Below, piece after piece: positions 10,929 through 32,478 of a DNA stretch of 64,000 bases. The DNA is from a virus. Lineage: Duplodnaviria > Caudoviricetes. The translations under genes and the position numbers were made by a program. The stretch spans positions 192,001 to 256,000 of IMG/VR virus record IMGVR_UViG_3300023213_000432; one strand, 5' to 3'. The notes beneath the pieces are model-generated. The model saw nothing but the letters and a program-made list of their open reading frames with translations. It was not told the DNA's origin and searched no databases. Positions within the stretch are counted from its first letter, which is position 1. Every line of letters starts with the position of its first letter.

Positions 10929-13037
10929 CTAGTCAATGATTTGATGCTTGTTGGCTCGATACCATTCGATGGTTTGTTGGAGTCCAGTGCGAAGATCGGT
11001 GGAGGCTGTCCAGTTGAGGAGGGTTTTGGCGCGTGAGATATCGAGACATCTTCTAGGCTGACCATCTGACACTTCATTTGTGAAGATCGCGTTTCCAGTA
11101 AAACCGGTTAGTTCTTTGATAAGGTGAGCTAATTTATAGATGGAAATTTCTTTGCCAGTGCCCAAGTTGATGGGAAGATTGGTATCCAACTTGATGTTAA
11201 TGGCTTTAGTAATGGCGTCGGCACAATCCGACACGTGCAAAAATTCTCTGGTAGCTGCTCCTGAGCCCCAGCATTCCACAACAGGAAGGTTCTTTTCAAT
11301 AGCAGTATCAAATTTTCGAATTAATGCAGGAATGACGTGACTATTAGTAAGATCGAAATGATCGTGATTCCCAAACATGTTAGTTGGAATGAGATGAGCG
11401 CCTTTGATACCATATTGTTGTCGATAAGTTTGTCCTAACATCATGAGCGTTCTCTTACTCTGTGAGTAGGGAAAATTGGTTTCCTCTGCGGCACCGTTCC
11501 AAATGTCATCTTCTTTGAAAGGAACAGAACAGTATTTAGGATATGAACAATTATGAACAATTAATCCGTTAATATTATAGGTTTCGTTGGTGGTACTAAA
11601 ATTATATATATCAATATTTTGACGATAAATTTCTTTTTTAGACAAAACAGGAATGCACCAATCTGTAACATTATCATATGAATTGCATTCTACATTATAT
11701 CTGCTCCTTTTGGTTTTAGGATGTAAAAATTCTCTATATTCTGGGAAAAAGTCGTTGACTAATTTTTTACAAAATGAACCAGAGTATTTTAGCGTCCATG
11801 AACCGTTGCCTTGTATTTTTCTGGATTTAATATAAGAAATTGTTGGTTTTCGGTAATGAATCGATCCATAATATCCTAAAGAAAGTATCAAATCACGGAC
11901 TTGATAAATAAGGTTCTGTGAAGCACTTGTCATTTGAACAGTATTTATAAATTGCCCATTTGCATACTTTCTTCGACTAATGTGCCCATCTCCCATTATG
12001 TATGCTTTAAGAAATGAAATTTTCATTTCTCGTTCCAAATTATAAATCCAGCTTGGAATTTTTTTATAATGGCAAGTTTTTCTGGGAGCATTTTCCAAGT
12101 AAAAATTATCATGTAAAAATTCTTGTAGTTGTTTTGAACTAAAATCTAATCTATAACCTTTTTGATTACGACAGTGATTAACGCGAAGGGTTCTTTTGAA
12201 AAGTTTTTTAGTTATTTTTTGTAAAGCATCAATTGTTGGCTGTTCATTTTCTCCTAAATAAATGCTAATTTCGCCAGTGTGTGTTGCTGCATAGCCTTCC
12301 GCCAAATACCACCCAAAAAATTCCATCAACTCTTTTGTTATTTCTATTGTAGTATCTAGCGCAACTGTTTTATTATTCAAATTTTTTGTTCTCCAAGAAT
12401 TATTTATATTGTTTAATTTAATATTTGTAATTTTGTTGGATGAATCTGTTGTTTGAAGAACCAAATGATCATTTGATTTCAAATTTTGCGCAGGCACCCA
12501 TGTAATGTTATTGTTCCTTTTAACGAGAAATGGATGTTCTGGGGTAGTTGTGATTTTTTCTCCTCCAAAACTTCTTATTTCTATTAAATTACCAGTATAA
12601 ATTTGACGAATTAATTTTTCTATTTTAGCTGGACGATCTTTACCAATCACAAAATCATTGAGTTTTATATTATCAATTTGAATATATGTTAAATTATTTA
12701 GTTTAACCAAACAATCTTTTGTAAAACAAACTGTTCCAAGCGAATAAACATAGGGGATATTGTGTTTCCTAGCACATTCAAAAATGTTAAGTGCCATTTG
12801 AGTATTATCTCGGAGAAAATCCGCAGGATTATTTTTATTTGCTAAAATGCCTCCGCACTTGGCTGCGAGATGTAGGATTGCATCTGGGTTTTCTAACCAT
12901 ATAGAATTCAATTCGACATTAGGATTTAATAGATTAAGAGCTTTGCTTGACGGAGCAATAACTTGATGTTCTATTTTTAATTTCTCGATTACAGGTTTTC
13001 CGAGAAAACCGTTTCCGCCAGTTACTAAGATTTTCAT
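10929..13037 (-). CDS. fcl: GDP-L-fucose synthase (GDP-4-keto-6-deoxymannose 3,5-epimerase/4-reductase) containing an intein
   Basis: GGNGFLG, HLAAKCGGI..N...PADF, SLGTV|CSYPK, YSQSK, SHVIPAL, WGSGAATREF. Removing the intein leaves ~309 aa. Confidence 0.93.
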   Translation of the reverse strand: MKILVTGGNGFLGKPVIEKLKIEHQVIAPSSKALNLLNPNVELNSIWLENPDAILHLAAKCGGILANKNNPADFLRDNTQMALNIFECARKHNIPYVYSLGTVCFTKDCLVKLNNLTYIQIDNIKLNDFVIGKDRPAKIEKLIRQIYTGNLIEIRSFGGEKITTTPEHPFLVKRNNNITWVPAQNLKSNDHLVLQTTDSSNKITNIKLNNINNSWRTKNLNNKTVALDTTIEITKELMEFFGWYLAEGYAATHTGEISIYLGENEQPTIDALQKITKKLFKRTLRVNHCRNQKGYRLDFSSKQLQEFLHDNFYLENAPRKTCHYKKIPSWIYNLEREMKISFLKAYIMGDGHISRRKYANGQFINTVQMTSASQNLIYQVRDLILSLGYYGSIHYRKPTISYIKSRKIQGNGSWTLKYSGSFCKKLVNDFFPEYREFLHPKTKRSRYNVECNSYDNVTDWCIPVLSKKEIYRQNIDIYNFSTTNETYNINGLIVHNCSYPKYCSVPFKEDDIWNGAAEETNFPYSQSKRTLMMLGQTYRQQYGIKGAHLIPTNMFGNHDHFDLTNSHVIPALIRKFDTAIEKNLPVVECWGSGAATREFLHVSDCADAITKAINIKLDTNLPINLGTGKEISIYKLAHLIKELTGFTGNAIFTNEVSDGQPRRCLDISRAKTLLNWTASTDLRTGLQQTIEWYRANKHQIID
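11550..12728 (-). mobile_element. Intein (393 aa) with LAGLIDADG homing endonuclease in fcl
   Basis: Starts CFTKDCLV, block B TTPEHPFL, LAGLIDADG-like FGWYLAEGY and KAYIMGDGH, ends IYNFST...GLIVHN, +1 Cys. Confidence 0.93.
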
Positions 13038-13084
13038 TTTATTAAACTCCAATTTTCTTTAGTTCTAAATATATCTTTTTTCAC

Positions 13085-14044
13085 TTATATTGAAGCCATA
13101 CATTCTTCAATCATTTCATCAATAATATCATCCACTGTATATTTTGCTTTCCACCCTAATTCTTTTTGGATTTTACTACTGTCTGGATCTAACTGATCCA
13201 CTTCATTAGGTCTATAATATTTGCTGGATACTTTTACATAATCTTTCCAATTTAATCCAAGTTTAGTAAAAACTTTTTCAATGAATTCTTGAACGGTAAT
13301 CATTGGATTGGAGCCAATGACATAATCTTTTGGTTCTGCTGCATTCATCATCAGCAGCATCCCATCAATCACATCATTAACATGGTTCCAACTACGACGC
13401 GCCTCAATATTACCAATAACTAATTCTTTTTGTAATCCTTTTGATATTTTGCAAGCTGCCTGACACACCTTCATAGTTAGAAAGGTAGGAGATCGTTTTT
13501 TACTTTCGTGGTTAAACGATACGCTGTTAATCGCGAATAATCCATATGCCGTTCGATAATTTTTAACTGTCCAGTAAGCGGCAAGTTTGGCCACGCCATA
13601 TGGGCTTTGCGGATGCATCGCGGTTTCTTCGTTTTGAGGAGCTTTGGAACTGCCAAAAAGTTCAGAAGTTGAAGCCTGTAGAAACCTGGTTTTAGGACTA
13701 TATAATCTAATTGCTTCCAAGCATCTGATGACTCCACCACCATCAACATTTAGAACATAATCAGGAAGATCAAAACTTACTTTAACGTGAGACAAAGCTC
13801 CCAAATTAAAAAAGTAATCTGGTTTGCTGCTGCTTATAAAAGAATTTACACTGCCAGTATCTGATAGATCACCATATGATAGTTCAAGATTAGGATGATT
13901 GAATATGTGTTCAATTCTTTCTGTGTTGAAAGAGCTGCTTTTACGGATCATACCAAAAACTTGATACCCATCATTAAGCAATCTTTCAGCCAAAATAGAG
14001 CCGCATTGTCCCGTAATACCCGTAATTGCCGCCACTTTACTCAT
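13085..14044 (-). CDS. gmd: GDP-mannose 4,6-dehydratase
   Basis: ITGITGQCG, SHVKVSF, QASTSELFG, SPYGVAK, FNHES. Confidence 0.93.
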   Translation of the reverse strand: MSKVAAITGITGQCGSILAERLLNDGYQVFGMIRKSSSFNTERIEHIFNHPNLELSYGDLSDTGSVNSFISSSKPDYFFNLGALSHVKVSFDLPDYVLNVDGGGVIRCLEAIRLYSPKTRFLQASTSELFGSSKAPQNEETAMHPQSPYGVAKLAAYWTVKNYRTAYGLFAINSVSFNHESKKRSPTFLTMKVCQAACKISKGLQKELVIGNIEARRSWNHVNDVIDGMLLMMNAAEPKDYVIGSNPMITVQEFIEKVFTKLGLNWKDYVKVSSKYYRPNEVDQLDPDSSKIQKELGWKAKYTVDDIIDEMIEECMASI

Positions 14045-14965
14045 TTATTCTGCCTCTTCTTCCTCATATATCGTCTTAAAATATTCTATCGTCTTCTCAA
14101 TGCCCCTTTCCAAATCCCATTGAGGTTTCCATCCTTTTGCTTGAAGCTTCTCAGAAGATAATCTTGTATGCATCAATTCTCCCTTAATCGCTTCTCCATA
14201 AACAATTTTAGATTGACTTCCTGTTTTCTCCAAAATCATTTTAGTCACCTCATTGACACTAGTTTGCGTATTAGAGCTGACATTGTAGGTTCCTTCCAAA
14301 TCCATTGCCAAAAGATTGGCTTGAACAACCGAATAACAATCGATAAAATCTCTGGTTGCCTCACCTGAACCAAAGATTACGAGATCTTCCCCCTTTAACG
14401 CTTTCTCAATAAAAATGGAAATTATTCCAGCTTCGCCCTTACTGTTTTGGCGCGGGCCGTAGCAATTAGAATATCGTAGAGCGACATAGGGCAGATTATA
14501 CAATGCTAAATACTTTTCCACCGTCAATTTTGCCAATCCATATGGACTTTGAGGGTTGCACTCGGATGTTTCCTTCCATGGAAGAGGCGCCTTAGGAGAA
14601 TAGATGGCTCCCCCCGTTGAGGAAAAAATTAATTTCTTCACACTCGTCCTCACACAGTTTTCTATAATGTTGAGACTGCCCACAATATTAGTACTAGCGT
14701 CAAAGCGAGGTTCTTTGATAGAGTGGCGCAGATTTATTTGGGCAGCTAAATGGAAAACATAATCAAAATGGTGTTTATCAAAGATTTTACGAATCATCGC
14801 AGGATCAGTAATATCTTCTTTGTAAAAGGCGACGGGCGAATGAAGATTATCAAGGGAACCAGTGGAAAGGTTATCAATTACTACTATTTGATGAGATTGT
14901 TGAGCCAACGCATCTACTAAATGAGACCCGATAAATCCGCAACCTCCCGTGATTAAAATTTGCAT
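14045..14965 (-). CDS. NAD-dependent epimerase (UDP-Glc/GlcNAc 4-epimerase-like)
   Basis: GGCGFIGSH, HLAAQ, SSTGGAIY, SPYGLAK, YGPRQ..GEAG. Confidence 0.88.
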   Translation of the reverse strand: MQILITGGCGFIGSHLVDALAQQSHQIVVIDNLSTGSLDNLHSPVAFYKEDITDPAMIRKIFDKHHFDYVFHLAAQINLRHSIKEPRFDASTNIVGSLNIIENCVRTSVKKLIFSSTGGAIYSPKAPLPWKETSECNPQSPYGLAKLTVEKYLALYNLPYVALRYSNCYGPRQNSKGEAGIISIFIEKALKGEDLVIFGSGEATRDFIDCYSVVQANLLAMDLEGTYNVSSNTQTSVNEVTKMILEKTGSQSKIVYGEAIKGELMHTRLSSEKLQAKGWKPQWDLERGIEKTIEYFKTIYEEEEAE

Positions 14966-15927
14966 GTTGCCTCTTTTTGAGCTAGTTCTAAATCGTAATC
15001 CACCATTTCTTTTATTAAGTCAGTAAAGCTATATTTAGCTTTCCAATTCAGATGAGTTTGAATTTTGGTAATGTTGCCGCATAGAGTGTTTTCTGTAGTG
15101 TTCCTAAGAAATTTAGGATCTATCAAGACATAATCTTTCCAGTTTAAATCACAATATTCAAAAGCCAACTCTACCAATTCTTGGATCGAATGAGTCTGTC
15201 CAGAAGCAACAACAAAATCATCAGCTTGATGGTGAGTAATAATTTTGTAAATGGCTTCGGCGGTATCTTGGGCATGACTGAAATCGCGACATGATTGTAA
15301 ATTGCCAAGAGTGAGCGTCTTTTGCAAACCATATTTGATCCGAGCGGCTCCTTTGGTAATTTTACGAAAAACATATTCTTCGCTGCGGCGAGGACTTTCA
15401 CTATTAAAACAGATAGCATTACAAGCGAATACCCCCGTTTTGCGATAAGCTATGGTTGCCTGATACCCAATAAACTTAGCTTGAGCATAAGGGGATTGAG
15501 GATCTAATGGGCTAATTTCATTTTGAGGTGCCGGACTACTACCAAACATCAGGGCACTTCCCAGAGTAATAAAACGAGTGAATGGACTGTATTGTTGAAT
15601 GGCTTGCAAACAGGAAGAAACCGCATTGCCCGTGGCTTTCATGGTGTATTCTGCATTATCAAAAGAAGAGACAACGTTGGATTGTGCTGCACAATTGATA
15701 AAAAAATCAGGACATTTGCTAGCTAAACTATTAACAAAAGGCACATAAGTGATGTCTCCGGAGATAAGAGACAATTTAGAATCAGAAAGTAATGGCTCCA
15801 TGTATGTTGGCATGGGCTTGTCGAGATTATGAATTACCCCCCAGACTTCGTAATTTGCTTTCAAAAAAAGTTCGGTCAAATATGATCCAATTTGACCGGT
15901 AACGCCAGTAATACAAACAGTCGGCAT
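14953..15927 (-). CDS. Second GMD-like SDR lacking the catalytic Glu (possible Rmd-type reductase)
   Basis: ITGVTGQIG, SPYAQAK, FNSESPRR; LGSALMFG replaces ASTSELFG. Confidence 0.8.
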   Translation of the reverse strand: MPTVCITGVTGQIGSYLTELFLKANYEVWGVIHNLDKPMPTYMEPLLSDSKLSLISGDITYVPFVNSLASKCPDFFINCAAQSNVVSSFDNAEYTMKATGNAVSSCLQAIQQYSPFTRFITLGSALMFGSSPAPQNEISPLDPQSPYAQAKFIGYQATIAYRKTGVFACNAICFNSESPRRSEEYVFRKITKGAARIKYGLQKTLTLGNLQSCRDFSHAQDTAEAIYKIITHHQADDFVVASGQTHSIQELVELAFEYCDLNWKDYVLIDPKFLRNTTENTLCGNITKIQTHLNWKAKYSFTDLIKEMVDYDLELAQKEATCKF

Positions 15928-15980
15928 ATCGCGGTATATATCGTGGGTAGATGTGAATTTCTAAAATTAGTGAGAGAAAC

Positions 15981-16601
15981 ATGCAGATAGAGTTTCAAGG
16001 ACAAGCCCGCCAAGATGAATTTGTTGCCAATATTTTGAATTTTAAAGAAGATGGATATTATTTGGACATCGGAAGTTGTGATGCAATTTCTACCAGTAAT
16101 ACTTATTACCTCGAATCATTAGGATGGAATGGGATTTGCGTAGAAATTGATCCACAACATGTCAAAAGTTATGATGCTCGAACGTGTTATTTCGTGAATG
16201 GTGATGCTACTCAACTTGATTATAAGGATTTGTTGGATCGAAGAAATTATCCACCACACATTGATTATTTATCATTGGACGTGGATGAATTAAGCACCGC
16301 AGTTCTCCAGAAATTACCCCTCGACGATTACAGATTTAATATCATTACTATCGAACATGATTTTTATCGACTTGGTGGTGAATTCCGAGATATTCAAAGA
16401 GGTCTTTTACATAAACATGGGTATTCACTATTATTTGCAGATGTATTAGTGCCGCTCAACGACGAATTCCCGCCTGACTGCGCTTTTGAGGATTGGTGGA
16501 TTGATCCCACAACTTTTGATATGGAGATCATGAAGAAGTTAAGCGCGGAAAAATTATACCCCAAACAAATAATTGATGTCCTCAAGGAATCCAAATCATG
16601 A
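15981..16601 (+). CDS. FkbM-like SAM methyltransferase
   Basis: QARQDEFV, YYLDIGS, IDYLSLDVD. Confidence 0.8.
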   Translation: MQIEFQGQARQDEFVANILNFKEDGYYLDIGSCDAISTSNTYYLESLGWNGICVEIDPQHVKSYDARTCYFVNGDATQLDYKDLLDRRNYPPHIDYLSLDVDELSTAVLQKLPLDDYRFNIITIEHDFYRLGGEFRDIQRGLLHKHGYSLLFADVLVPLNDEFPPDCAFEDWWIDPTTFDMEIMKKLSAEKLYPKQIIDVLKESKS

Positions 16602-17344
16602 TTAATATATATACTATCCAATTCAATGATGCCGATTATTTACGATGGCAACATCGAACTTTTGAAAGATTTTGTAAGGACGCTTATCGAATAATTTGCA
16701 TCAACAATGCCTATGATAATTGGCGTAATAAAGAAGAAATTCGAACCACAGCCGTCGAATTAGGAATAGAACACCATTTTCCTCAAGGCGTCAATAATGT
16801 TAAAGGTGGGTGGGCTCATCAATCTGCTCTCAATTGGACTTGGCGTAACCTTATCATTCATAACAATGACATTAACATGATTTTAGATCATGATATGTTT
16901 TTAATCCGAGATTTTTCTTGTGCAGGCATGCAAGAAGATGTTTGGAGCGTGATGCAAGGGCGCGGAGGTCATATTAGATATTTTTGGCCCGGATTTATGG
17001 TAGTCAATAACACTCTAAGAGATAAAGAGACAGCGGATTTTACTGGCGGGATAATTGATGGTCATCCATGCGATAGTGGCGGCAACTGGCATCACTATCT
17101 TCAAAGGCACCCAGATCTCAAGATTAAAGGGTTATCGATGGTGCATATTTGTGCGGAACAAGGCAACCTAGATGTATTACCTCCTGAGATTTTGGGCGAA
17201 TATGATGATAAAATCGATCCTATCCAAATACTGGAAAATCATACCATTCATTTTCGGAATGGTTCCAATTGGGCACAGAATCCTAATATTGGAAAAAAGA
17301 AAGAACACCTTATCAAAATTCTTAATTTTTATTTAAATAAATGA
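16598..17344 (+). CDS. Orphan glycosyltransferase-like protein
   Basis: LDHDMF DxD-like motif; related to 20486..21328. Confidence 0.55.
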   Translation: MINIYTIQFNDADYLRWQHRTFERFCKDAYRIICINNAYDNWRNKEEIRTTAVELGIEHHFPQGVNNVKGGWAHQSALNWTWRNLIIHNNDINMILDHDMFLIRDFSCAGMQEDVWSVMQGRGGHIRYFWPGFMVVNNTLRDKETADFTGGIIDGHPCDSGGNWHHYLQRHPDLKIKGLSMVHICAEQGNLDVLPPEILGEYDDKIDPIQILENHTIHFRNGSNWAQNPNIGKKKEHLIKILNFYLNK

Positions 17345-18312
17345 GCGAAATTAAAGTTGTCATTTTTGTAGTCACATTTAATCGTCTAAACACTCTTCGG
17401 AGATCGCTAGATGCTTATCGGGGATTTGCCACTCCACACGAAATTGTTATCATCAATAATGGCACCGATGATCCTCATGCGCTAGAATACCTTAATTCAT
17501 TGCCATATAAAGTTTATACTTTTCCTCAAATCTTTACCACCGATGCATTGGGGGCTAATATCGCTGCTGGTGTTCGAAAATATTATGACGAAGGCAACTA
17601 TGCTCCCTACTATGCAGTTTCGGATTGCGATATTTGCTTTGAAGGCGCACCACACAACACTTTAGATGCGTATATCGATTTATACCAAGCACTCGGTGGC
17701 AGATTTAATGTTGGCCCTGCCTTGATGATTGATCAGATACCTAACCACTATCCTCTAAAAAACAAAGCTATCATTGATAGTGCGTTTGATTTGCTTCCAC
17801 GTAATCAAAGAACATGGAACGGCATCCAATACAGTGAAGTTCCGATCGATACTACTTTTTGTTTATTTAGCGCTTCCAATACTCATTTTAGACGGCTGAC
17901 TAACACTATTCGTGTTAATAAGCCATACGCCGCCCACCATCTTGATTGGTATATTGACATTCGGAGCCCACAAGAAGATCAGGTGCGATACATGTTCAAG
18001 AAAAGTCCGATTGGTTCCTCAGGCGGCACCTATATTTCTGGTATGTATGAAGATTTACGAGTATCTCCAGAATATGCTTTTCAAAAAAGAATTGGAGAAT
18101 GGTCAAATAGAGAGCTTGCCTCATATTACATCGAGCCATATAATATTGCGTGGATGCTTCAATTTGGAATTGGATGCCAACAAGATATTGCTGAATCAAA
18201 AAGATGGATGACCAAAATGATTAAAACTTATGGAATTCATAAGGTAGATAAAATTTCCAATGAAGACTACTTTAAAATGATCTATGAGAACGATTTTGGA
18301 TGCCTCCGATGA
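17341..18312 (+). CDS. GT2-like glycosyltransferase
   Basis: VVTFNR, IINNG, SDCD, IDTTF. Confidence 0.7.
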   Translation: MSEIKVVIFVVTFNRLNTLRRSLDAYRGFATPHEIVIINNGTDDPHALEYLNSLPYKVYTFPQIFTTDALGANIAAGVRKYYDEGNYAPYYAVSDCDICFEGAPHNTLDAYIDLYQALGGRFNVGPALMIDQIPNHYPLKNKAIIDSAFDLLPRNQRTWNGIQYSEVPIDTTFCLFSASNTHFRRLTNTIRVNKPYAAHHLDWYIDIRSPQEDQVRYMFKKSPIGSSGGTYISGMYEDLRVSPEYAFQKRIGEWSNRELASYYIEPYNIAWMLQFGIGCQQDIAESKRWMTKMIKTYGIHKVDKISNEDYFKMIYENDFGCLR

Positions 18313-18977
18313 TTGCTATTTTTTGTCATATTTTTTATTCAAGAACATGGACTGATATTCGAGAGAGGTTAAGAAATTTTCCATTTCCTTTCAATCTTTA
18401 TATTAATCTTGTTGAGGGTCATTCTAGTCCGCTACTCAATATCATCGTTGCAGAGTTTCCGAGCGCTAAGATTCAGATTTCTCCCAATCAAGGAATGGAT
18501 CCCGGCGGACAACTTTGCACCCTCAATTATTGGTTAAAAGAAGGAGAAAACGAAGATTTTTTAATTTTCATTCATTCCAAGAACGATGATAGTCTGCGGG
18601 ACTTAATGATGAGCATTATTACTCCAGAAAAAGCCAGAAAAGCGATGGAACTTTTTAATGATCCTCAAGTGGGGATGGTCGGCGTTCAAGAGTGGAATCT
18701 ATACCCGCCAAAAATGTATAGTGCTCCTATTCACTTTTGTGATTACTATTGTGAGAAACTTGGTTTGAATAATTTTGAAACTAATCGTTTTGGATTTATT
18801 GGTGGAACTCAATTTTGGGTGCGCTCTTCTATTTATCGCAAAGTTTTTCAAAATGCTCCTATTCTTGATATTGTCGGCGAACTTCCTCCCTATGAAACTG
18901 GAAGTAAAACTCATGCCTTAGAACGAATTTTTGGGTATATTGTTTTGAGCGAAGGATTTAAAATCGAAGGCGTCTGA
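18309..18977 (+). CDS. Rhamnan synthesis F (RgpF)-like protein
   Basis: NQGMDPGG, FIHSK, GGTQFW, HALERIFG. Confidence 0.72.
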   Translation: MIAIFCHIFYSRTWTDIRERLRNFPFPFNLYINLVEGHSSPLLNIIVAEFPSAKIQISPNQGMDPGGQLCTLNYWLKEGENEDFLIFIHSKNDDSLRDLMMSIITPEKARKAMELFNDPQVGMVGVQEWNLYPPKMYSAPIHFCDYYCEKLGLNNFETNRFGFIGGTQFWVRSSIYRKVFQNAPILDIVGELPPYETGSKTHALERIFGYIVLSEGFKIEGV

Positions 18978-18978
18978 C

Positions 18979-19515: not shown

Positions 19516-20486
19516 TTTATATCAATGGTTGGCAAATATTCGTCCATATAAGTGGTAAGCTTATCTGTCGTTAAAAGAAAATCAGCAGACGAATATTCTT
19601 TGCTCAAATTATTTTTGGGCAAACTATTTTTGACGACAACAAAATAATTATCTCGAACATCCGTTCTGAGCGCCTCTTCAGTGGTTAACATAATTTCGTC
19701 CAATTTTTCCACTCCTCGTAAGCCAATTATTTTGTAAGGTTTGTTAAATTTCTTGCTAAAGTATTCTATTAAATCAAGGATTTTCATTGAAGAAAGTTTT
19801 GGCACCCACATCTCTCCGTTTTGTCCCCGCTTTATAGTATCATTGATTAAATTAACTGCTTCAGAAAGCGTCATCATAAATCTTGTCATTGCTGGATGTG
19901 TTAAAGTAAAACAATTGATTTTGGAATCTTTGGACTGTTTTATTAATAATGGTATTATGCTGCCCTTGGAGCACAAAACATTGCCATATCTAACTACGAT
20001 TACTTTGGAAGTGGAGCCATCAAAATGATTAGATAAGTTGAACATAATTTTTTCGGAAATGGACTTGCACATTCCATAAATACTGATCGGCCCAGCCGCT
20101 TTATCTGTAGATATAAAACATGTTATTTGGGGCGCCCATGCTTTTATTAGACTCAATGATTGGATTGCATTGGCAATATTTAATATACCTAGAATATTGG
20201 TTTTGACGCTTTCTTCTGGAAATTTTTCACAAATGTCTATTTGTTTAAGTGCTTGCGCGATGATTACGATATCTGGTTTTTCTTGTAACAAAATTTCTTT
20301 AACTCTTTTGTCATCTCTAACATCACAAATGGTAGTGGAAAGATTGTTGTGTTTGAAGCGATTACTTATTTCCCAGTGTTTGGCTTCGTCGCGAGAAGCT
20401 ACAACAATTTCATATCGATCGATGTAAAACTTTACCAGCTCATTGCCTAAGGAACCTGCTCCACCGAATATTAACATTTTGGTCAT
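19512..20486 (-). CDS. UDP-GlcNAc 4,6-dehydratase/epimerase (PseB/FnlA/CapD family)
   Basis: GGAGSLG, ALKQI, STDKA, YGMCK, RYGNV..SKGS, MTRF. Confidence 0.88.
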   Translation of the reverse strand: MTKMLIFGGAGSLGNELVKFYIDRYEIVVASRDEAKHWEISNRFKHNNLSTTICDVRDDKRVKEILLQEKPDIVIIAQALKQIDICEKFPEESVKTNILGILNIANAIQSLSLIKAWAPQITCFISTDKAAGPISIYGMCKSISEKIMFNLSNHFDGSTSKVIVVRYGNVLCSKGSIIPLLIKQSKDSKINCFTLTHPAMTRFMMTLSEAVNLINDTIKRGQNGEMWVPKLSSMKILDLIEYFSKKFNKPYKIIGLRGVEKLDEIMLTTEEALRTDVRDNYFVVVKNSLPKNNLSKEYSSADFLLTTDKLTTYMDEYLPTIDIN

Positions 20487-21328
20487 TAGTCCCATCCGAA
20501 ATATTCGTTATTTTGCATTTGAAAATTATGCTCTTTGGCTATTATTATTCCGTCTATGGTTCCATAAACAAATTTTTTGACAAATTCTGATTTTAATCTG
20601 TGATGGTCTTCGGAGCGCCAATCCCAATTACTACTAGCGCGATAATGTAAAAACTCATTACCAAAAAATTCAATATGATATTCATCATTATATTCATTAA
20701 GAAGACTATCAGGGATACAATGTCTGTTACCGTTTTGTTCTTTGATGTGCCAGCTGCTTTTTAAATTTTTGACTTTTTCTTTCATACTTGGGTGTGATTG
20801 AAAATATAAATATGTTCCGCCTCCGGTATCTAATGCCACTTCTACTCCAGTATCGTAAAGTTTTGGCCCCTCCCAATCAATAGTTTCAGCATCGGGTATA
20901 TTTTCTGTATCCATTATAACTACAGCCGGGCCCAAATAATGATAATGTGGGCGACGTTTATAATACGCTCCTGCGAACGCATAATCCTTCATAAAATCGT
21001 TGATATTGAGTTTCTTAATTAAGAAAATATCACCATCCATCATAATGGTAAAAGTTCCATTGTTTTTAATGGAGTGATTTTTCCAAACATAGTTGAATGC
21101 GTCGGCATGTTGTTTGCCAACCGGGCCTTCACTGTAAAACGTTTCTATTATTTCCAATTTTAGTTCAGAAGCTGCGTTGTTTATTTCTTGACGATGATTA
21201 GGATCTCGTGCGTTATTGACCACAATTAATTCAAATTGATCGGAAAGATGACATTTGAAACTATCAAGCTGCCATTTGATTATGTCTGCTCTATTGCAGT
21301 GGATAGTGTATATTTTGACTGGCTTCAT
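20486..21328 (-). CDS. Orphan glycosyltransferase-like protein
   Basis: MDGDIF; N-terminus parallels 16598..17344 (IYTI...I.WQ...F). Confidence 0.55.
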   Translation of the reverse strand: MKPVKIYTIHCNRADIIKWQLDSFKCHLSDQFELIVVNNARDPNHRQEINNAASELKLEIIETFYSEGPVGKQHADAFNYVWKNHSIKNNGTFTIMMDGDIFLIKKLNINDFMKDYAFAGAYYKRRPHYHYLGPAVVIMDTENIPDAETIDWEGPKLYDTGVEVALDTGGGTYLYFQSHPSMKEKVKNLKSSWHIKEQNGNRHCIPDSLLNEYNDEYHIEFFGNEFLHYRASSNWDWRSEDHHRLKSEFVKKFVYGTIDGIIIAKEHNFQMQNNEYFGWD

Positions 21329-22103
21329 TCATAAACTCTTTCAGCTCATATAGTTGTATTCTGAGTGGCAAACTTTGAATATCTGGCATTAACGTCCTAT
21401 TAACAGAGTTTGTATCAGTATGACTAATTATTGATTTCTGACATTCAAAAATTTCGTTGATAAGTTGAAGCAAACTAAATTTACTAATGGATTCTGATGC
21501 TATTTGTTTAATTCCTATTTGATATGTGGAAGCATGAATGATGTTATCAATAATTTTAGCCAATTCCAAAGTGGTTATTCCTGACCACCAGTGATTAACA
21601 AATCCCTTGACAGGGTTTTGCGAAGTATGTCTGAACCATTCAAATAATCCGAAGTTATCTTTGGATGGCCCGATTATGCTGGTTCGTAAGATCATAGCAT
21701 TTAAATCATCTTCTCCTTTAGCTTTGGATTTGCCATAACTGTCTTCGGCATCTTTTACATCATTGATGCAATACGATTTGCCCGCAGCTAGATTGCCGGA
21801 AAAAACGCAATCGCTTGAAATGTGAAACAATTTTTTGCATTTCGGTACGAGTTTATGTGGAAAATCATCGTTAAGCCTAAAAAATAAATTATCATCCGAT
21901 GATTTTTGTTTGATTAGTCCAATACAGTTAATGACATAATCATATTTTAACAATAGGGGAGGCTCAACTAAAGCATTGAATTCTTTTCTTGTCCATGCTG
22001 TAATAGCGTAACCAATTTTTGTTAGGTATTGAGAAATCGTGGAGCCTGCCATTCCGCTAGCCCCTAATACCAAGATCTTGCACGAATTACGTGTTATTGA
22101 CAC
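21291..22103 (-). CDS. RmlD-like NDP-4-keto-sugar reductase
   Basis: GASGMAG, NCIG, HISSDCVFSG, YGKSK, RTSIIG. Confidence 0.85.
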   Translation of the reverse strand: MSITRNSCKILVLGASGMAGSTISQYLTKIGYAITAWTRKEFNALVEPPLLLKYDYVINCIGLIKQKSSDDNLFFRLNDDFPHKLVPKCKKLFHISSDCVFSGNLAAGKSYCINDVKDAEDSYGKSKAKGEDDLNAMILRTSIIGPSKDNFGLFEWFRHTSQNPVKGFVNHWWSGITTLELAKIIDNIIHASTYQIGIKQIASESISKFSLLQLINEIFECQKSIISHTDTNSVNRTLMPDIQSLPLRIQLYELKEFMNEASQNIHYPLQ

Positions 22104-23011
22104 GTTTTTTCCAGAAAATCCAAAATCGCACCTATTCTATTGATGTAGGTATGTTTATTTTTAACAACATCCATCAAGGCGTGCAATTCCGTTAGAGGCA
22201 TACTTTCCATATATGTTCGAGCATTATAGAATAAGAGACGAGTATCGTTATTGTGAATTACTTTTTGTTGGAATAGTTCATGAATTCGTGGAGAATTGGT
22301 GATTCCCATTTGTCCATAACTAATATTTTTAAAAATCCTACAAGGAACATATCCTTTTTCATGTTGCCATTTACCCACAATAGTTGGTGCCATGTAAGAA
22401 TTTTGAATGAATTTGATATGTTCTTCTGGAACAACATTCATTCCATGCTCAAATCGAATACCGTTGGCTTGACATGCTTGTTGAAATGGAGTGATCTGAT
22501 CCAGATTACCAAAAGATCCTTCGCCCACAGTTCCGACCCAACGAATTAATTTGCTTTCGCTATTAAATACTCTGTTGGATTTATTGGCTTCTATCTCATG
22601 AGGCAGCAAATCAGTCGCCCATGGGAAATAAATGCATTTGCCATCGTAATCCGCTAAAACACAGTCATCCATTTTGGTGGTATTGTATTTCAAAGCATCG
22701 TCTGTATATGTTTGCATTCTAACCGCTTTATTGTCAGCAATTAGCGGCAAATATTTAGGATCATAGCAGTTATGAATAACATATAAACAATTATGACTAA
22801 TAGGAATTTTCTTATCTACTTGACCCTCGGTTAAATATAGGGTATTCGTGTGAAAGCTATCATTTACATTATCGTTATCGTCAAACCAATAGGCTTGGGC
22901 TCCTAGATGCTTGAAAGCTTTGACATAGGCTTGATGAATATAATAGAAAGTATTTTCTGTGGTCTTATGACCCCATAAAACAACTTTCCAATCTGTATAA
23001 TTAAACTGCAT
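22094..23011 (-). CDS. Glycosyltransferase-like hypothetical protein
   Basis: C-terminal PCRIFKNISYG...ITNS and HTYINRI resemble CgeB/GT-B type C-domains; island context. Confidence 0.5.
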   Translation of the reverse strand: MQFNYTDWKVVLWGHKTTENTFYYIHQAYVKAFKHLGAQAYWFDDNDNVNDSFHTNTLYLTEGQVDKKIPISHNCLYVIHNCYDPKYLPLIADNKAVRMQTYTDDALKYNTTKMDDCVLADYDGKCIYFPWATDLLPHEIEANKSNRVFNSESKLIRWVGTVGEGSFGNLDQITPFQQACQANGIRFEHGMNVVPEEHIKFIQNSYMAPTIVGKWQHEKGYVPCRIFKNISYGQMGITNSPRIHELFQQKVIHNNDTRLLFYNARTYMESMPLTELHALMDVVKNKHTYINRIGAILDFLEKTCQ

Positions 23012-23606
23012 TTTGATCCTGTTGATTGATATATATGCCTATCATAGATTTCCCATCCAAATAATACATGCGGCATCTTTCTTCATTCATTATGTATTTT
23101 TGGGTTATGTTAAATAATGTGTATGGGGAAAACCAGTACTTGTGATCCGGATGCACGATTTCAAAAGCATATTCGTCTTCTTGAGTCATTTCTTTTTGAT
23201 AGTGTAAAATATTGGGAACACTAATAAAAACTTCTTTGGATTTAATAACAAAAATCTGATCTAAAAATTCTTTAGCATTTATCACATGTTCCAAAACTTC
23301 TGGTACAATCACTATATCATATTCTTGATCGCAAGTTTCAAAATTTGAAAAATATGTTCCGGGATACGCTTCTTGTAATTTTTGTAAATCTTCCTTATTG
23401 ACATCCATTCCGTGCAACTCAGAAGCTGTTTCAATCAACTTGATATGTAAATTATGTCCTGGACCATATACCATCGCATCAGCACATCCAATATGTAGAA
23501 CCTTTTTATCTTTGCATAGGTTTTTAAAGAAATCAAATCTGGTTTCCGTCACGTTAATCATGTGAATTTTTTGCAAATAAAAGTCTTCTGTTTTTTCATA
23601 AATCAT
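23001..23606 (-). CDS. SAM-dependent methyltransferase-like protein
   Basis: VLHIGC, GMDVN, EVLEHV, SVPN. Confidence 0.78.
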   Translation of the reverse strand: MIYEKTEDFYLQKIHMINVTETRFDFFKNLCKDKKVLHIGCADAMVYGPGHNLHIKLIETASELHGMDVNKEDLQKLQEAYPGTYFSNFETCDQEYDIVIVPEVLEHVINAKEFLDQIFVIKSKEVFISVPNILHYQKEMTQEDEYAFEIVHPDHKYWFSPYTLFNITQKYIMNEERCRMYYLDGKSMIGIYINQQDQNAV

Positions 23607-24328
23607 ATTTGCTTCCAAGATGATGGTAAAAGATCTCTAGTGTTGTGAGATAATGCTGGGCCAAACCAACGAGCAGGGGCGACCACAATTTTAGTAGGAA
23701 GTTTATTAAGATAAGCGCTCCACCACCCAAACGTACTATTGCAAACAATCTGGTTTTCACAACTGGCCATTAATGCCAGATCTTCGATCGGACTTCTTCC
23801 TTCTGAGAATATAACGTTATTGCCTGTAAAATTAGCTTTGCACCACGGAATATCATCCGAGAAAATAATGTATTGGTTTGTTTTAGCAATTTCCATGGCT
23901 TTTTGGTAATAGTCCATTCCTAGCTGTATATACTCTCTTGTTAGAGTTAAGTAATCTCCGCGCCTTATGTGTATCGCAGTATAGCCGTATTTGATTCCAA
24001 ATCCAATTTTTGGAGTAAGTAGATGTTGGATGGTGTCCTGACAATCTTCGAAATATTTGATGGATTGATAAAATCCTACTAAATCTACAGTAGCGTTTAT
24101 AGTGTCTCGGTGTGGAATGGGCGCATAATGAAAATGAGGTTCATTGTAAGTGATGGTTGGCTGGATAGAATTGGAAAAGCATCCGTGCAAATTGAAGTGA
24201 GGAGCATAGTCCCATGGTGGAAATAGGTATTTATCGTTATTGCGAATAGCAAGAGCAATGGTAGCGGCACACTGAAAGAGCTGATTTCCAAGTCTGCCTT
24301 GCTTTCCGAGATTAGTAAAAGTGATCAT
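23603..24328 (-). CDS. Alpha-1,2-fucosyltransferase (GT11)
   Basis: GRLGNQLFQ, GFYQS.KYF, HIRRGDY, FSDD..WC, NSTFGWW.AYL. Confidence 0.92.
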   Translation of the reverse strand: MITFTNLGKQGRLGNQLFQCAATIALAIRNNDKYLFPPWDYAPHFNLHGCFSNSIQPTITYNEPHFHYAPIPHRDTINATVDLVGFYQSIKYFEDCQDTIQHLLTPKIGFGIKYGYTAIHIRRGDYLTLTREYIQLGMDYYQKAMEIAKTNQYIIFSDDIPWCKANFTGNNVIFSEGRSPIEDLALMASCENQIVCNSTFGWWSAYLNKLPTKIVVAPARWFGPALSHNTRDLLPSSWKQI

Positions 24329-24331
24329 GAT

Positions 24332-24433
24332 TTAGTCTTTACGCTGAAACTGATCGGCATTTTTAATTTCTTTGCACCCACAACATTTTTTGGTTATTAG
24401 GTTTTGTTTTTCAAGATTGGTGGGCGTGATCAT
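24332..24433 (-). pseudogene. 33-codon remnant: duplicated GT11 5' end fused to an HNH-family N-terminus
   Basis: MITPTNLEKQ (cf. GT11 MITFTNLGKQ) followed by TKKCCGCKEIKNADQF (cf. TKQCNECGLIKTKEEF). Confidence 0.6.
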
Positions 24434-25113
24434 GTTGGTTTTTTCTTTTTGTGTCTAATTTTGGTAGATCCGTCTAATATATTTTGTTTTGCAGATAATG
24501 GTCTAAGATTTTCCAACGACCAGCATTCCCTGAATTCTTCGTCTTCCATCGAAGTATAGCGAAATGTTGAGTGGGGAATAATGTGATCTAATTGCCACTT
24601 CCAAGTGGAGGGATCATTATTATTCCAAGTTTTAGAATCATAACTTCCGTGATTATCTTTATTCATCCATGGTTCAAATTGATTTTTTATATGGTTCCAA
24701 AATTCTTCCATAGAATATGGCAAATAATTTAATGTAGATCTGCCGCCCTTACTTGATCCTTCGTGTTTTAAATGATATGCTATCATTTTAGATATAAGTT
24801 TTTTAAGTTTAAATTGAATGTCTTCTTGTATTCTTTCTTTTTCTCTTTCATTATTTCTTTTTAGAATTTTCTTTTTATTGATTGGATCTGTACGATATTC
24901 TTTTTGATATTTTATTTTTTCTTCTCTATGGGTTTGATAATACTGCTTATCATATTTTATTTTATCTTCTTTATGTAGTTGCGCATATTTTCGAAAACAC
25001 TCGCTGCATTTTCCACTTTTTCTTCCATCCTTTCTTTCAAATTGAGACGGAAAAAATTCTTCTTTTGTTTTTATTAGACCGCATTCGTTACATTGTTTGG
25101 TTTTGATATTCAT
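24430..25113 (-). CDS. HNH-like putative homing endonuclease, copy 1
   Basis: CxxC N-terminus, K/E/Y-rich helical repeats, WQLDHIIP...CWSLENLRP.SAKQN. Confidence 0.72.
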   Translation of the reverse strand: MNIKTKQCNECGLIKTKEEFFPSQFERKDGRKSGKCSECFRKYAQLHKEDKIKYDKQYYQTHREEKIKYQKEYRTDPINKKKILKRNNEREKERIQEDIQFKLKKLISKMIAYHLKHEGSSKGGRSTLNYLPYSMEEFWNHIKNQFEPWMNKDNHGSYDSKTWNNNDPSTWKWQLDHIIPHSTFRYTSMEDEEFRECWSLENLRPLSAKQNILDGSTKIRHKKKKPT

Positions 25114-27431
25114 GATCTTATTTTAATGTGATCTTTGTCAAGAAGTAATATCTTCGGTTGCCAATTATGTCCTCCCCACTTTGTTTTATATCTCTCAATA
25201 TCTGTTTGGGGATAATGATATGAGGGTGAAAGATTAAGGGTTGGAGGATGATCTGCAAAATATTTGTTGAGTATACTTTCATCATGGTAAATTGGAATTA
25301 TTCCATTTTTTTGATCTTCTTCCAATGCTTCGGAGCACCATTTGGCTAATTCTAAATATTGCTCTCGTTTCCCGCCACTAAATCCGCCACCATAATAAAA
25401 TTTTCTTTTAGCAGGTTCAATGTAAGATGTTGATTTGGTATTGTTTTCAAATGGGCCACTTCCATCTAAATGCCCACAATGCCTTACTCCCACTAATTGT
25501 TCTATGATCGCATTATTCACAGTATCAACAAACAAACAATCTACATCAACATAAAAAAGATATTCTTCTTGCACAAACTTATCAGCATGTTGTGTAAAAT
25601 GTTTAAATCTATCCATGCTTGCATACGGGAAAGGTCGATGTTCAATTGGTATCTTGATAACTGGACGCCTAGAAACAATTTCAGCATTACTATCCGTGAA
25701 AATATAATAAGACACGTCATAATCATTTAGGAAATAATTATCAGCGGAAGAAATCATTCCCTGAATAAATCGATCATACTTGCCCGTAGCAATCATTATT
25801 AAGCCAACAGTAGTTCTGAAGGGGTTCGTATCTACTCGTTGATACTTGGGCAACCCTCGAATATAGCGATCCAAAAATTGCTGCATTTCCATATTAACTT
25901 TATGATCATTAATTGGATTTTCCAAATTATAGACATAAAGAATATCATGCAAATATTTGGCTCGATGTCCCGACATTTCCATCATGGGAAACATCATGGC
26001 CAAGTCCCATGTCATTGGATAGAAGTGTCCATCCTTCATCAAATCTTCTTTTTTAATCTCCTTGAATAACCAAGCATAGAAAGTTCTCAAATGGCTAGCG
26101 CCCCAAGTAAAATTGCGAAAAGAGTTAGAATCAATCACGTGACCCGGATAGGGAGCAGCTACTCCTACTCCGCCCATTGGATGATTAGTATATTGTCCAT
26201 AAGTCATCCAGATGTCTTCTCTGGAATAAATATCATTGAGTCGATTAAGAACATTATCATTGGGAAGCCAATCATCTCCATCCAACGTTAGCACGATTTC
26301 GTCATCCCCGCAACTATGGATCATATTGTAAAGATTGCCTAATGCACCAATTCTAGTTTCATTTTTATGCACGGTAGCAATATTAGCTCGTCCCGAAGCA
26401 TGCACTGCCTCTTTGACCAAGCCAAAAGTGTTGTCCTTAGAACAGTCATCGGTAAATAGCACCCGAAAATTATCGTAATTTTGATTAAGAGCAGAATTAA
26501 TATTCCTCATGCACCATTGAGCATTATTGTAGCTTGGAATGACAATAGCAAACCTTTTGCCATGCTTAAAGTTACGAGTCCTAATACGGATAGGTGGATT
26601 AGAAATAGGAGCGCCGCCGGGCGCAGCTGTTGGCACATGTCCAGACAAAGATGGCGGAGTAAAGAAAACTGGTGGGGATTGACTGGCGGTGGTTTGATAT
26701 CGATAATTGGCTGTTTGGAAAAAATTGAGGGATGGAGGAATAAGAGATGGCGGAGGCTCTGGGGGGGATGGAGGAATCGGACGAGCAAACTGAATGGGAC
26801 TGGTATTTTTGACCGCAATCCATAATCTTCGATTGTTTGAATTGCTTTTTCCATCGTTTCTATCTACCCAATCATAGGTATAATCACCGGAATTGAATCT
26901 ATTGTTGTCCAATCGTTTCCAATTCATTCCACATTCTGCCATAACTCGTTCAATAGCGGCGGTGGAAGGACGACAACTTACCCCGTTAATAGAGAGATCG
27001 TAGATGGCTTTGTTTTCTTGAAGCAATTCATGTTTGAAGGGATCCGCGGAGTCGCAAACGGTGGTTTCTAGGACTAGGTGAGTAGTGGCTGCACAAACTG
27101 CCCGCAAATGAGCCGTATAATCTCGCAAATGACAAAGCAAATCCAAATCTAAAATAATATCAAAAGCTTTATTGCCGAAGGGCCAGCCTTGATCTAAATC
27201 GGCTTGCAGGGTTTTGATGCCGGGATATTTTTTATTGGCTACTTTAAGATGTTCTGGACGGGCATCTATCGCGGTGACATCAGCACCTAATCGATATAAG
27301 GCAGCACTAATATCAGCGTGCCCACATCCTAGATCTAGAAGCCGCTTATAATAGAAAAACTTATAGCCATAGAATTCAATAATACCTTTGATGCGTTTGG
27401 CGTTCCAATCAATATAGCGTCCGTCGAACAC
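25110..27431 (-). CDS. Fusion: SAM methyltransferase + Pro-rich linker + GT2 + GT6 (ABO-type alpha-1,3-GalNAc/Gal transferase)
   Basis: LLDLGCG; IVIPSYN...DDCS...LDGDD; IATGKY, YIFTD, DVD (25539-25547), FYYGGGFSGG, HDESILN. Confidence 0.88.
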   Translation of the reverse strand: MFDGRYIDWNAKRIKGIIEFYGYKFFYYKRLLDLGCGHADISAALYRLGADVTAIDARPEHLKVANKKYPGIKTLQADLDQGWPFGNKAFDIILDLDLLCHLRDYTAHLRAVCAATTHLVLETTVCDSADPFKHELLQENKAIYDLSINGVSCRPSTAAIERVMAECGMNWKRLDNNRFNSGDYTYDWVDRNDGKSNSNNRRLWIAVKNTSPIQFARPIPPSPPEPPPSLIPPSLNFFQTANYRYQTTASQSPPVFFTPPSLSGHVPTAAPGGAPISNPPIRIRTRNFKHGKRFAIVIPSYNNAQWCMRNINSALNQNYDNFRVLFTDDCSKDNTFGLVKEAVHASGRANIATVHKNETRIGALGNLYNMIHSCGDDEIVLTLDGDDWLPNDNVLNRLNDIYSREDIWMTYGQYTNHPMGGVGVAAPYPGHVIDSNSFRNFTWGASHLRTFYAWLFKEIKKEDLMKDGHFYPMTWDLAMMFPMMEMSGHRAKYLHDILYVYNLENPINDHKVNMEMQQFLDRYIRGLPKYQRVDTNPFRTTVGLIMIATGKYDRFIQGMISSADNYFLNDYDVSYYIFTDSNAEIVSRRPVIKIPIEHRPFPYASMDRFKHFTQHADKFVQEEYLFYVDVDCLFVDTVNNAIIEQLVGVRHCGHLDGSGPFENNTKSTSYIEPAKRKFYYGGGFSGGKREQYLELAKWCSEALEEDQKNGIIPIYHDESILNKYFADHPPTLNLSPSYHYPQTDIERYKTKWGGHNWQPKILLLDKDHIKIRS

Positions 27432-31941: not shown

Positions 31942-32013
31942 GCCCATTTCGTATAGTGGTTATTACTTAACTTCGGTAAAGTTGAAAGCTGAGTTCGATT
32001 CTCAGATTGGGCT
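31942..32013 (+). tRNA. tRNA-Thr(GGT) with C at position 33
   Basis: G1-C72, C2-G71, D-loop GG, anticodon stem TAACT/AGTTG, loop TCGGTAA, T arm CTGAG-TTCGATT-CTCAG. CCA not encoded. Confidence 0.75.
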
Positions 32014-32033
32014 CAAACAAACCTACTAATAGC

Positions 32034-32043
32034 TTGATATATA
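32034..32043 (+). promoter_or_regulatory. Recurrent (TT)GATATAT(A/C) motif, candidate phage promoter
   Basis: TTGATATATA 7 nt before ATG 32051; same motif 7-9 nt before several other starts. Confidence 0.55.
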
Positions 32044-32050
32044 GATCGAC

Positions 32051-32389: not shown

Positions 32390-32398
32390 TGAAGATTT

Positions 32399-32470: not shown

Positions 32471-32478
32471 CTAAATAT

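Follow-up and report, generated by a model that had tools for sequence, protein, structure and literature searches.

What does a huge phage build with GT6 and GT11, the two glycosyltransferase (GT) families behind the human ABO(H) antigens, and where does it place the product? Prokaryotic and phage relatives of these families bear on the origin of vertebrate GT6 and on natural anti-A/anti-B antibodies. We address this question for a sugar-building island in a 64,000-nucleotide stretch of DNA (referred to as the window), bases 192001-256000 of the 327-kb IMG/VR virus record IMGVR_UViG_3300023213_000432 (Duplodnaviria; Caudoviricetes), which CheckV estimates to be 76% complete. The sugar-building genes span ~19 kb, mostly on the minus strand, and include a fusion protein that ends in a GT6 domain and a GT11 fucosyltransferase. 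A first-pass annotation of the window had listed gmd, fcl, GT11, a 4-epimerase and a GT6 with the motifs DVD, FYYGGGFSGG and HDES. Profile and PDB matches, together with the motifs in the translations, locate every one of these where it had placed them. We consider the odds slightly better than even (about 0.55) that the island is virus-encoded, wholly cytoplasmic machinery, which makes a methyl-capped terminus resembling blood group A or B.

The fusion gene (25110..27431, minus strand) encodes a protein of 773 aa. It consists of an S-adenosylmethionine (SAM)-dependent methyltransferase domain (residues ~1-200; Pfam E=1e-11), a Pro-rich linker (~205-290), a GT2 domain (~293-530; E=1e-15) and a GT6 domain (538-773; nucleotides 25113-25820). 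The motif LDLGCG is found in the methyltransferase, IPSYNN, TDDCS and DGDD in the GT2 domain, and DVD, GGGF, HDES, K766 and R772 in the GT6 domain. The solved relatives of the GT2 domain are generic GT2 enzymes only (chondroitin and heparosan synthases, E=1e-9), giving no donor call. The GT6 domain scores 128.9 bits against a cut-off of 25 for PF03414 (E=2e-37), with matches to BoGT6a of Bacteroides ovatus (E=4e-35) and human GTA (E=2e-30) over ~205 residues. The protein ends one residue past R772, and hence lacks the C-terminal BHB membrane-binding domain.

The catalytic and donor residues of the GT6 domain can be read from its motifs, D629-V-D631, F678-YYGGGFSGG-687 and H716-DES-719. By direct and profile alignment, the catalytic residues are D629xD631, E718 (E303 of GTA), K766 (K346) and R772 (R352). 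ABO positions 266, 267 and 268 align with G681, G682 and G683, so the earlier statement that positions 266 and 268 are both Gly is borne out. The donor tetrapeptide is GGGF, compared with LGGF in GTA, AGGL in BoGT6a, MGAF in GTB and HAAI in α3GT. GGGF thus shares the Gly-Gly core of the GalNAc transferases GTA and BoGT6a, and appears compatible with UDP-GalNAc.

For the acceptor, three positions separate the two classes of GT6. In enzymes that take fucosylated acceptors, A1 is His (His122 in BoGT6a, His233 in GTA), A2 is Gly or Ser, and A7 is small or aliphatic (Ile228 in BoGT6a, Ala in GTA); in α3GalT, which does not accept the 2'-fucose, the three residues are Gln, Trp249 and Trp356 (PMC3516806). 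In the window GT6, the three positions are occupied by His651, Gly653 and Leu763, none of them as in α3GalT. The position of A7 comes from a profile of 15 homologues, in which LLLDKNHxEVR of the clade aligns with human VPK346NHQAVR352. We also considered whether the C-terminal NWQPK corresponds to Trp356-x-x-Lys359 of α3GalT (SWQTK), which would block a fucosylated acceptor. The profile alignment rules this out, as K766 and R772 equal K346 and R352 of GTA. The alignment supports acceptor residues of the GTA/BoGT6a type, not the α3GalT type, the aligned enzymes being 30-40% identical.

The first-pass annotation had also singled out DxD as a vertebrate-like trait. It is rather the norm of the phage/Parachlamydia clade, occurring in 83 of the 84 viral homologues sampled and in 83 of the 84 from bacterial metagenome-assembled genomes (MAGs); nearly all of them carry His-x-Gly, AGGF or GGGF, and Ala or Leu at A7. 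This clade of minimal DxD prokaryotic GT6, typified by cyanophage P-SSM2 and by PaGT6 of Parachlamydia acanthamoebae, was defined in 2012 (Thiyagarajan et al., 2012; PMC3516806). PaGT6 moves GalNAc to the H antigen, requires Mn2+ or Mg2+, and is inactive on N-acetyllactosamine; by its description, it resembles the window GT6 in having DxD and no BHB domain (PMC3516806). The sampled homologues from MAGs of Parachlamydiaceae and other Chlamydiae have catalytic and substrate residues as in the window GT6. On the other hand, PaGT6 is a single-domain bacterial enzyme, whereas the window GT6 sits behind a methyltransferase and a GT2 domain. The window enzyme also has GGGF in place of AGGF in the sampled Chlamydiae homologues, Leu in place of mostly Ala at A7, and Tyr in place of a conserved Trp.

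We notice that the cellular part of the DxD clade (loci L086-L164) consists mostly of Dependentiae/Babeliales and Chlamydiae MAGs, which are amoeba- or protist-associated lineages. The spread of DxD GT6, together with a Megavirus-like dehydratase in the island (see below), hints at a gene pool shared by protist-associated bacteria, giant viruses and huge phages.

The GT11 gene (23603..24328, minus strand; 241 aa) scores 94.6 bits against a cut-off of 23.9 for PF01531. As expected of the family, it has an N-terminal GRLGNQLFQ, followed by IHIRRGDY, FSDDIPWCK and NSTFGWWSAYL, and it is predicted to be an α1,2-fucosyltransferase. In order to measure its linkage to GT6, we took 80 viral and 79 bacterial loci with a DxD-type GT6 and searched their open reading frames (ORFs) with hidden Markov models built from the window proteins. 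Although these loci lack phylogenetic independence, their identity to the query ranges over 34-60%. A GT11 lies within the flank in 68 of the 80 viral loci (85%), at a median gap of 646 bp and within 1 kb in 40 of them; in the bacterial loci it is near GT6 in 18 of 79 (23%). All nine of nine randomly chosen GT11 calls lie above the Pfam GT11 cut-off. The other genes are less frequent in the viral loci (GMD 44%, GalE-like 40%, Fcl 22%).

The eight closest viral relatives examined, on contigs of 41-428 kb, have GT11 immediately behind the fusion gene, with the two genes overlapping, and GT11 homologues of 44-61% identity take the place directly after the fusion in ten relatives. Of all the evidence that both enzymes may act on the same sugar, like WbwK and WbnI of E. 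coli O86, this linkage is the strongest. In that system, WbwK (GT11) and WbnI (GT6, acting on Fuc-α2-Gal-β-R) make the B antigen (PMC4202792), and we propose the same order here. In one of the nine sampled calls, from another viral contig (L062:11365-12906), GT11 is fused with a Glyco_transf_7C (galactosyltransferase-type) domain, which is another way to couple Gal transfer and fucosylation.

The GT6/GT11 junction of the window carries a homing-endonuclease-like gene (24430..25113, minus strand; PHROG 2340 'endonuclease', E=5e-8; GC content 0.30), which is absent in the eight relatives where GT6 and GT11 overlap. A GIY-YIG-like gene occupies the same junction in a relative (L004:12322-13023). 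We found no homology between the two endonucleases, so they are independent insertions, and because they are unrelated the junction has been invaded at least twice. Two further homing-endonuclease-like genes of 255 and 285 aa (27449-28216 and 28213-29070, minus strand; PHROG 'endonuclease VII', E=1e-8, and 'endonuclease', E=2e-6; GC 0.31 and 0.32) lie between the fusion and the next GT2 gene, and are absent at this place in L004.

Around the pair, the conserved core has the order Thg1-like gene, GT2 (257 aa), fusion, GT11 and methyltransferase (205 aa), and the rest of the island varies among relatives. The order from GT2 to methyltransferase is kept in relatives on 9- to 428-kb contigs. The core GT2 gene (29067..29840, minus strand; PF00535, 58 bits) has homologues of 45-57% identity directly upstream of the fusion in nine relatives. 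The SAM methyltransferase gene (23001..23618, minus strand), itself with weak Pfam methyltransferase matches, has homologues of 47-64% identity directly after GT11 in six. The Thg1-like tRNA-His guanylyltransferase gene (30496-31284; PHROG 4717, E=1e-44) adjoins the core here and in five relatives.

An exhaustive GT6-domain search with clustering at 50% identity placed ~19 clusters closest to the fusion. They are 51-62% identical and 774-988 aa long, with GT6 at the C terminus. A GT2 domain is present in 20 of 22 sequences and a methyltransferase in only 3, and 15 have instead a ~400-aa N-terminal domain (P0077-P0093, residues ~1-430). This domain has no Pfam match; its feature matches (≤0.79) give weak leads resembling carbohydrate-binding modules. 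In a FastTree tree of 169 GT6 domains, which took in no vertebrate or NxN bacterial sequences, the window falls into a 12-sequence clade with an SH-like support of 100, all viral and all fused. The tree and the domain architectures show a clade of huge phages that joined GT6 to GT2 and often to a methyltransferase; we identified no cultured representative of it.

The genomic setting bears on whether the island belongs to the phage at all. On both sides of it lie an RNA ligase/tail-fibre attachment catalyst, an SbcCD-like nuclease, a clamp-loader-like ATPase, a family B DNA polymerase and TnpB transposases. The phage is huge and uncultured, and its cultured kin are distant, the best SbcC-like matches being 21-26% identical. 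TnpB-type transposase genes bracket the island at 8661-9854 and 32860-33999 (PHROG 506, E=4e-133 and 2e-49). This flanking, as well as the cellular origin of the best characterised relatives of the sugar-nucleotide genes, would fit bacterial DNA misjoined to a phage contig, or else a passenger that came in very recently and serves the phage in no way. However, GC content is even across the window (~0.33-0.40) and the same in the island, five other viral contigs show the core in synteny with the phage Thg1-like gene, the fusion clade contains viral sequences only, and the island includes homing endonucleases and an intein of the sort that phage genomes typically carry. We give almost no credence to a misjoin or idle passenger.

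The sugar nucleotides would be supplied by accessory genes of the island. GDP-mannose 4,6-dehydratase (GMD; 13085..14044, minus strand) matches Pfam GDP_Man_Dehyd with 356.5 bits and TIGR01472 with 366.5 bits, the equivalog cut-off being 415. GDP-L-fucose synthase (Fcl; 10929..13052, minus strand, with ATG at 13037 likely the true start and a database copy of 702 aa) is split by an intein and matches NCBIfam NF047922 in two stretches (E=1e-70); with the intein still inside, its score is 238 bits against an equivalog cut-off of 500. Its C-extein aligns with residues 107-317 of E. coli GFS in the PDB (E=1.5e-42) and keeps YxxxK and His179; GTV-C, YSQSK and NSHVIPAL of Fcl align to the catalytic Ser/Thr107, Cys109, Tyr136, Lys140 and His179. 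A GalE-like UDP-hexose 4-epimerase (14045..14965, minus strand) has the UDP-glucose 4-epimerases 4zrm (E=1.4e-82) and 2p5u (E=4e-61) as its closest solved relatives, and scores 175.7 bits for TIGR01179, whose cut-off is 262.

A second, divergent GMD paralogue (14953..15927, minus strand; Pfam domain 282 bits, TIGR01472 252 bits) has no close counterpart (at least 150 bits) in the 159 other GT6 loci. We considered it as an Rmd-type GDP-D-rhamnose reductase, and ruled this out by its match to the Arabidopsis GMD MUR1 (239 bits, versus 75 bits for the Rmd-type reductase 2pk3).

The intein in Fcl (11550..12728, minus strand; 393 aa) contains a LAGLIDADG homing endonuclease (Pfam Intein_splicing 47 bits, LAGLIDADG_3 42 bits). 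Its borders are GTV/CFTKDC and IVHN/CSYPKY (the slash marks the junction), with the N-terminal Cys at C109 and the +1 residue at C502. It has the N-terminal Cys, the TxxH block (TPEH), HN/C and two LAGLIDADG motifs that define an intein. The +1 Cys aligns with the catalytic Cys109 of E. coli GFS. Since the intein sits on the catalytic Cys, Fcl is predicted to be active only after the intein splices out, and GDP-fucose synthesis by the phage would depend on splicing. An intein at the same site of Fcl occurs in ten other metagenomic clusters, and a literature search of limited reach turned up no paper on inteins in GDP-fucose synthase. We also observed a second Fcl intein site in two metagenomic clusters (P0228 and P0233), ~70 residues downstream of the catalytic Cys (NMYGE/CFS).

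Besides fucose, the island appears to supply a deoxy-amino sugar. A UDP-GlcNAc 4,6-dehydratase/5-epimerase gene (19512..20495, minus strand; Pfam Polysacc_synt_2, 227 bits) has 4TQG as the best solved relative of its product (E=9e-70), namely the Megavirus chilensis enzyme Mg534, with which UDP-L-RhaNAc synthesis begins (PMC9614988). An RmlD-like 4-reductase of 270 aa (21291..22103, minus strand; Pfam RmlD_sub_bind E=2e-11, TIGR01214 E=1e-11) is a candidate equivalent of Mg535, as it equals Mg535 in length and a single gene separates it from the Mg534-like gene. In Megavirus, too, the dehydratase/5-epimerase Mg534 and the 270-aa reductase Mg535 are virus-coded cytoplasmic enzymes (PMC9614988).

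From the gene identities, motifs, residue determinants, gene linkage and lack of membrane proteins, we infer every catalytic step, glycosidic linkage and product of the following pathway. One or both GT2 activities would add a β-linked sugar, presumably Gal, to a primer; several β3-Gal transferases belong to GT2, and GT2 members provide β-Gal in comparable loci (PMC4202792). GT11 would then add α1,2-fucose to form an H-type disaccharide, and the metal-dependent DxD GT6 domain would add α1,3-GalNAc (possibly Gal) to the same Gal. The methyltransferases may O-methylate the chain end. GDP-Fuc would come from GMD and Fcl, which are accessory and variable among relatives, UDP-Gal or UDP-GalNAc from the GalE-like epimerase, and a UDP-6-deoxy-L-N-acetylhexosamine (UDP-6-deoxy-L-HexNAc) from the Mg534/Mg535-like pair. 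At least four more putative transferases suggest a glycan bigger than the A trisaccharide.

In total, the island holds up to nine glycosyltransferase domains, five methyltransferases (four stand-alone, the fifth being the domain of the fusion) and the UDP-6-deoxy-L-HexNAc pathway, because of which any A/B-like motif would be just part of a larger, methylated, deoxy-sugar-rich glycan. The "near-complete A pathway" of the first-pass annotation is thus right in treating the GDP-Fuc genes, GT11 and GT6 as one gene set, in line with the 85% linkage, and too narrow in that the island is far larger and its Fcl needs splicing.

Several points weigh against this reading. A human cis-AB variant with L266G (plus G268A) is found among the titles of solved structures; because Gly266 also occurs in this dual-specificity enzyme, Gal may serve GT6 as donor as well, and the Gly at 266, which the first-pass annotation had taken to favour UDP-GalNAc, does not decide between the two. 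The donor and acceptor calls are both read from alignment to enzymes just 30-40% identical. The Trp that stacks on the acceptor (W300 in GTA, W189 in BoGT6a), elsewhere highly conserved, is replaced by Tyr715, and Tyr is found here in 1 of 84 viral homologues. GT11 in CAZy also lists an α1,3-fucosyltransferase activity. As for the supply of fucose, most close relatives have no GMD and Fcl near the module, so that it is not a fixed part. GMD, Fcl and the GalE-like epimerase all fall under their NCBIfam equivalog cut-offs, and for this reason their precise activities are assigned only provisionally, from their best relatives. Finally, the record is ~76% complete, and membrane or export genes may lie in the remainder.

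Taken further, some of these points may mean that GT6 makes no A/B-like epitope. It might use another UDP-sugar, or an acceptor that is not fucosylated or not Gal, with GT11 acting at another position and the likeness to ABO existing at the family level only. The Tyr in place of the stacking Trp would fit such an enzyme, as would Leu at A7, a position that is mostly Ala in the clade. The closest NCBIfam model is named 'family 6 glucosyltransferase', with a score below its cut-off, and up to nine GT domains allow many orders of action. Nevertheless, His at A1, Gly at A2 and an aliphatic A7 are as in fucose-accepting enzymes, with none of the Gln, Trp and Trp of α3GalT; GT6 and GT11 are very tightly linked, their genes overlapping in relatives; and PaGT6 of the same clade requires a fucosylated acceptor. 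We give a product of another kind less weight than the A/B-like terminus, though still an appreciable chance.

On which molecule would this terminus be placed? No transmembrane segment is predicted in any of the 22 island proteins (19-residue hydrophobic window ≥1.6), and any one ORF of the 327 kb contains at most 4 of them. We found no initiating phosphoglycosyl transferase, flippase, polymerase, ligase or Gtr-type membrane protein. The island therefore lacks the membrane-embedded enzymes that characterise Gtr-type or O-antigen seroconversion. What it has is the combination known from giant viruses, namely its own sugar-nucleotide synthesis and soluble multi-domain transferases. A064R of PBCV-1 is likewise one soluble viral protein with two GT domains and a methyltransferase (PMC9614988), although its GT families and domain order are unrelated, which makes it an analogy, not a homologue. 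Giant-virus glycans are proven on capsid or fibril proteins (PMC9614988). For mycobacteriophages, virion glycosylation is on record through Freeman et al. 2023, as cited in PMC12619734. Because of the lack of membrane components, the stable core synteny in diverged huge phages and the giant-virus parallels, we tentatively and slightly favour the virion proteins of the phage over a glycan of the host envelope as the target, at somewhat short of even odds.

Remodelling of the host envelope has a substantial chance as well, if also below one half. In this case, the soluble enzymes would modify the host's lipid-linked intermediates of O-antigen or capsule on the inner side of the membrane, a flippase or ABC transporter of the host would export them, and the product would block superinfection or grazing. 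This is the published reading of the homologous clusters in P-SSM2 (PMC1079782) and in jumbo cyanophages (PMC7824862). Bacterial GT6 and GT11 homologues serve O-antigen synthesis (PMC4202792), the accessory genes differ strongly among related phages in the manner of O-antigen loci, and soluble GTs are able to act on lipid-linked intermediates. The lack of membrane components speaks against it, and so does the lack of the BHB domain, which is typical of bacterial O-antigen GT6 (PMC3516806). Core synteny kept across diverged huge phages is unexpected for a host acceptor that varies between strains, and GT11 linkage is far weaker in bacterial genomes than in viral contigs.

A third target, the phage DNA itself, is very improbable. 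The transferases would here build a glycan on modified bases and so evade restriction. Phage GTs do glycosylate DNA, at times with diverse glycans, according to the account of Pyle et al. 2024 given in PMC12619734. However, no gene of the thymidylate-synthase family (dCMP/dUMP hydroxymethylase) was found in the 327 kb, and the fucose-acceptor determinants point to a Gal-containing glycan as acceptor. To our knowledge, GT6 and GT11 are not among the DNA glycosyltransferase families, which further counts against it.

Comparison with known systems shows what is shared and what is distinctive. The first-pass annotation had mentioned a cyanophage precedent for GT6 and GT11, and P-SSM2 indeed has GMD, epimerases, GT11 and GT6 together. 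Its 'LPS' (lipopolysaccharide) cluster (PSSM2_257-271; Sullivan et al., 2005; PMC1079782) shows a lytic phage in which GMD, epimerases, several GT2, GT11 and a DxD GT6 are clustered. The GT6 domains of P-SSM2 and the window are 33% identical; that of P-SSM2 is free-standing, 231 aa long and two genes from GT11, and its host is a marine cyanobacterium. P-SSM2 also lacks the methyltransferase-GT2-GT6 fusion, the Fcl intein and the Mg534/535-like pair. In the 642-kb phage LR756502, a GT2-GT6 fusion is accompanied by GT11, an epimerase, aminotransferases and an FkbM methyltransferase. The bacterial GT6 of E. coli O86 and BoGT6a differ in having NxN, and are metal-independent and membrane-associated, working on undecaprenyl-linked units with a full export pathway, none of which was found here. 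The kind of system is thus already known from P-SSM2 and LR756502. Distinctive here are the multidomain fusion clade with its translationally coupled GT11, the linkage as measured across loci, the gating of Fcl by an intein, a HexNAc pathway like that of Megavirus and the fact that no membrane components were found.

The remaining island genes account for the additional transferases and methyltransferases. A plus-strand sub-operon (15981..19515) encodes, by Pfam matches, an FkbM-type methyltransferase, a GT-A paralogue (248 aa), a weak GT2-like protein (323 aa), an RgpF-like protein (225 aa) and a methyltransferase (178 aa); only the FkbM methyltransferase and the 248-aa protein have counterparts in relatives. 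The latter is a paralogue of a 280-aa protein (20486..21328, minus strand), which is predicted from its structure to be a GT-A-fold glycosyltransferase outside the assigned families and has a conserved DxD/HxD-type motif. In its AlphaFold model (pLDDT 79.6, pTM 0.82), nearly all of the 50 Foldseek PDB matches listed are GT-A glycosyltransferases (GT8, glycogenin, C1GalT1, GT6), with TM-scores of ~0.4-0.5. A weak GT1-like protein of 305 aa (22094..23011, minus strand; Pfam Glyco_trans_1_2, E=0.002) has homologues that adjoin the module in L004, L011 and L013. An outlying pair on the plus strand (34811..36377) encodes an RmlA-like sugar-1-phosphate nucleotidyltransferase (PF00483, 153 bits; TIGR01208, 180.7 bits, below the cut-off) and an RmlD-like reductase (TIGR01214, E=1e-13).

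All island ORFs listed are open under translation table 11. A scan of the island for sigma-70 promoters and terminators revealed no excess over shuffled sequences (89 vs 79.5±9.7 and 13 vs 12.9). No public sequencing run and no RNA data came up for 23603-27431. Just past the island (31942-32553), there are a tRNA-Thr(GGT) and then two tRNAs with the anticodon CTA (amber suppressors; ARAGORN label 'Pyl'). A full-length homologue of translation initiation factor IF-3 follows at 34267-34797 (TIGR00168, 182 bits against a cut-off of 60). At the end of the window, the ORF of the family B DNA polymerase (60466-63999; >1178 aa) runs past the last base; its residues ~320-520 match terminase, ribonucleotide reductase and helicase PHROGs, a pattern typical of an intein or homing-endonuclease insert.

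Our analysis makes the GT6-GT11 pair a tightly linked and widespread module in viral contigs, and turns the annotation 'phage LPS genes' into a specific, biochemically testable hypothesis. The intein on the catalytic Cys of Fcl represents a selfish element gating a metabolic enzyme. Given the lack of membrane parts and the Megavirus-like sugar pathway, very large phages may, in the manner of giant viruses, add glycans to their own particles, which would affect views on phage-host recognition, grazing and immune recognition. In its fullest form, which we regard as distinctly doubtful, a clade of huge phages would decorate its own virions with a methyl-capped A/B-like glycan, using autonomous cytoplasmic machinery, at the centre of which an ABO-type enzyme with three activities is coupled in translation to a fucosyltransferase. 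If this is true, the environment would hold a widespread source of A/B-like antigens in the form of phage particles, and the vertebrate ABO genes could plausibly descend from an ancestor harboured by the DxD phage GT6 lineage.

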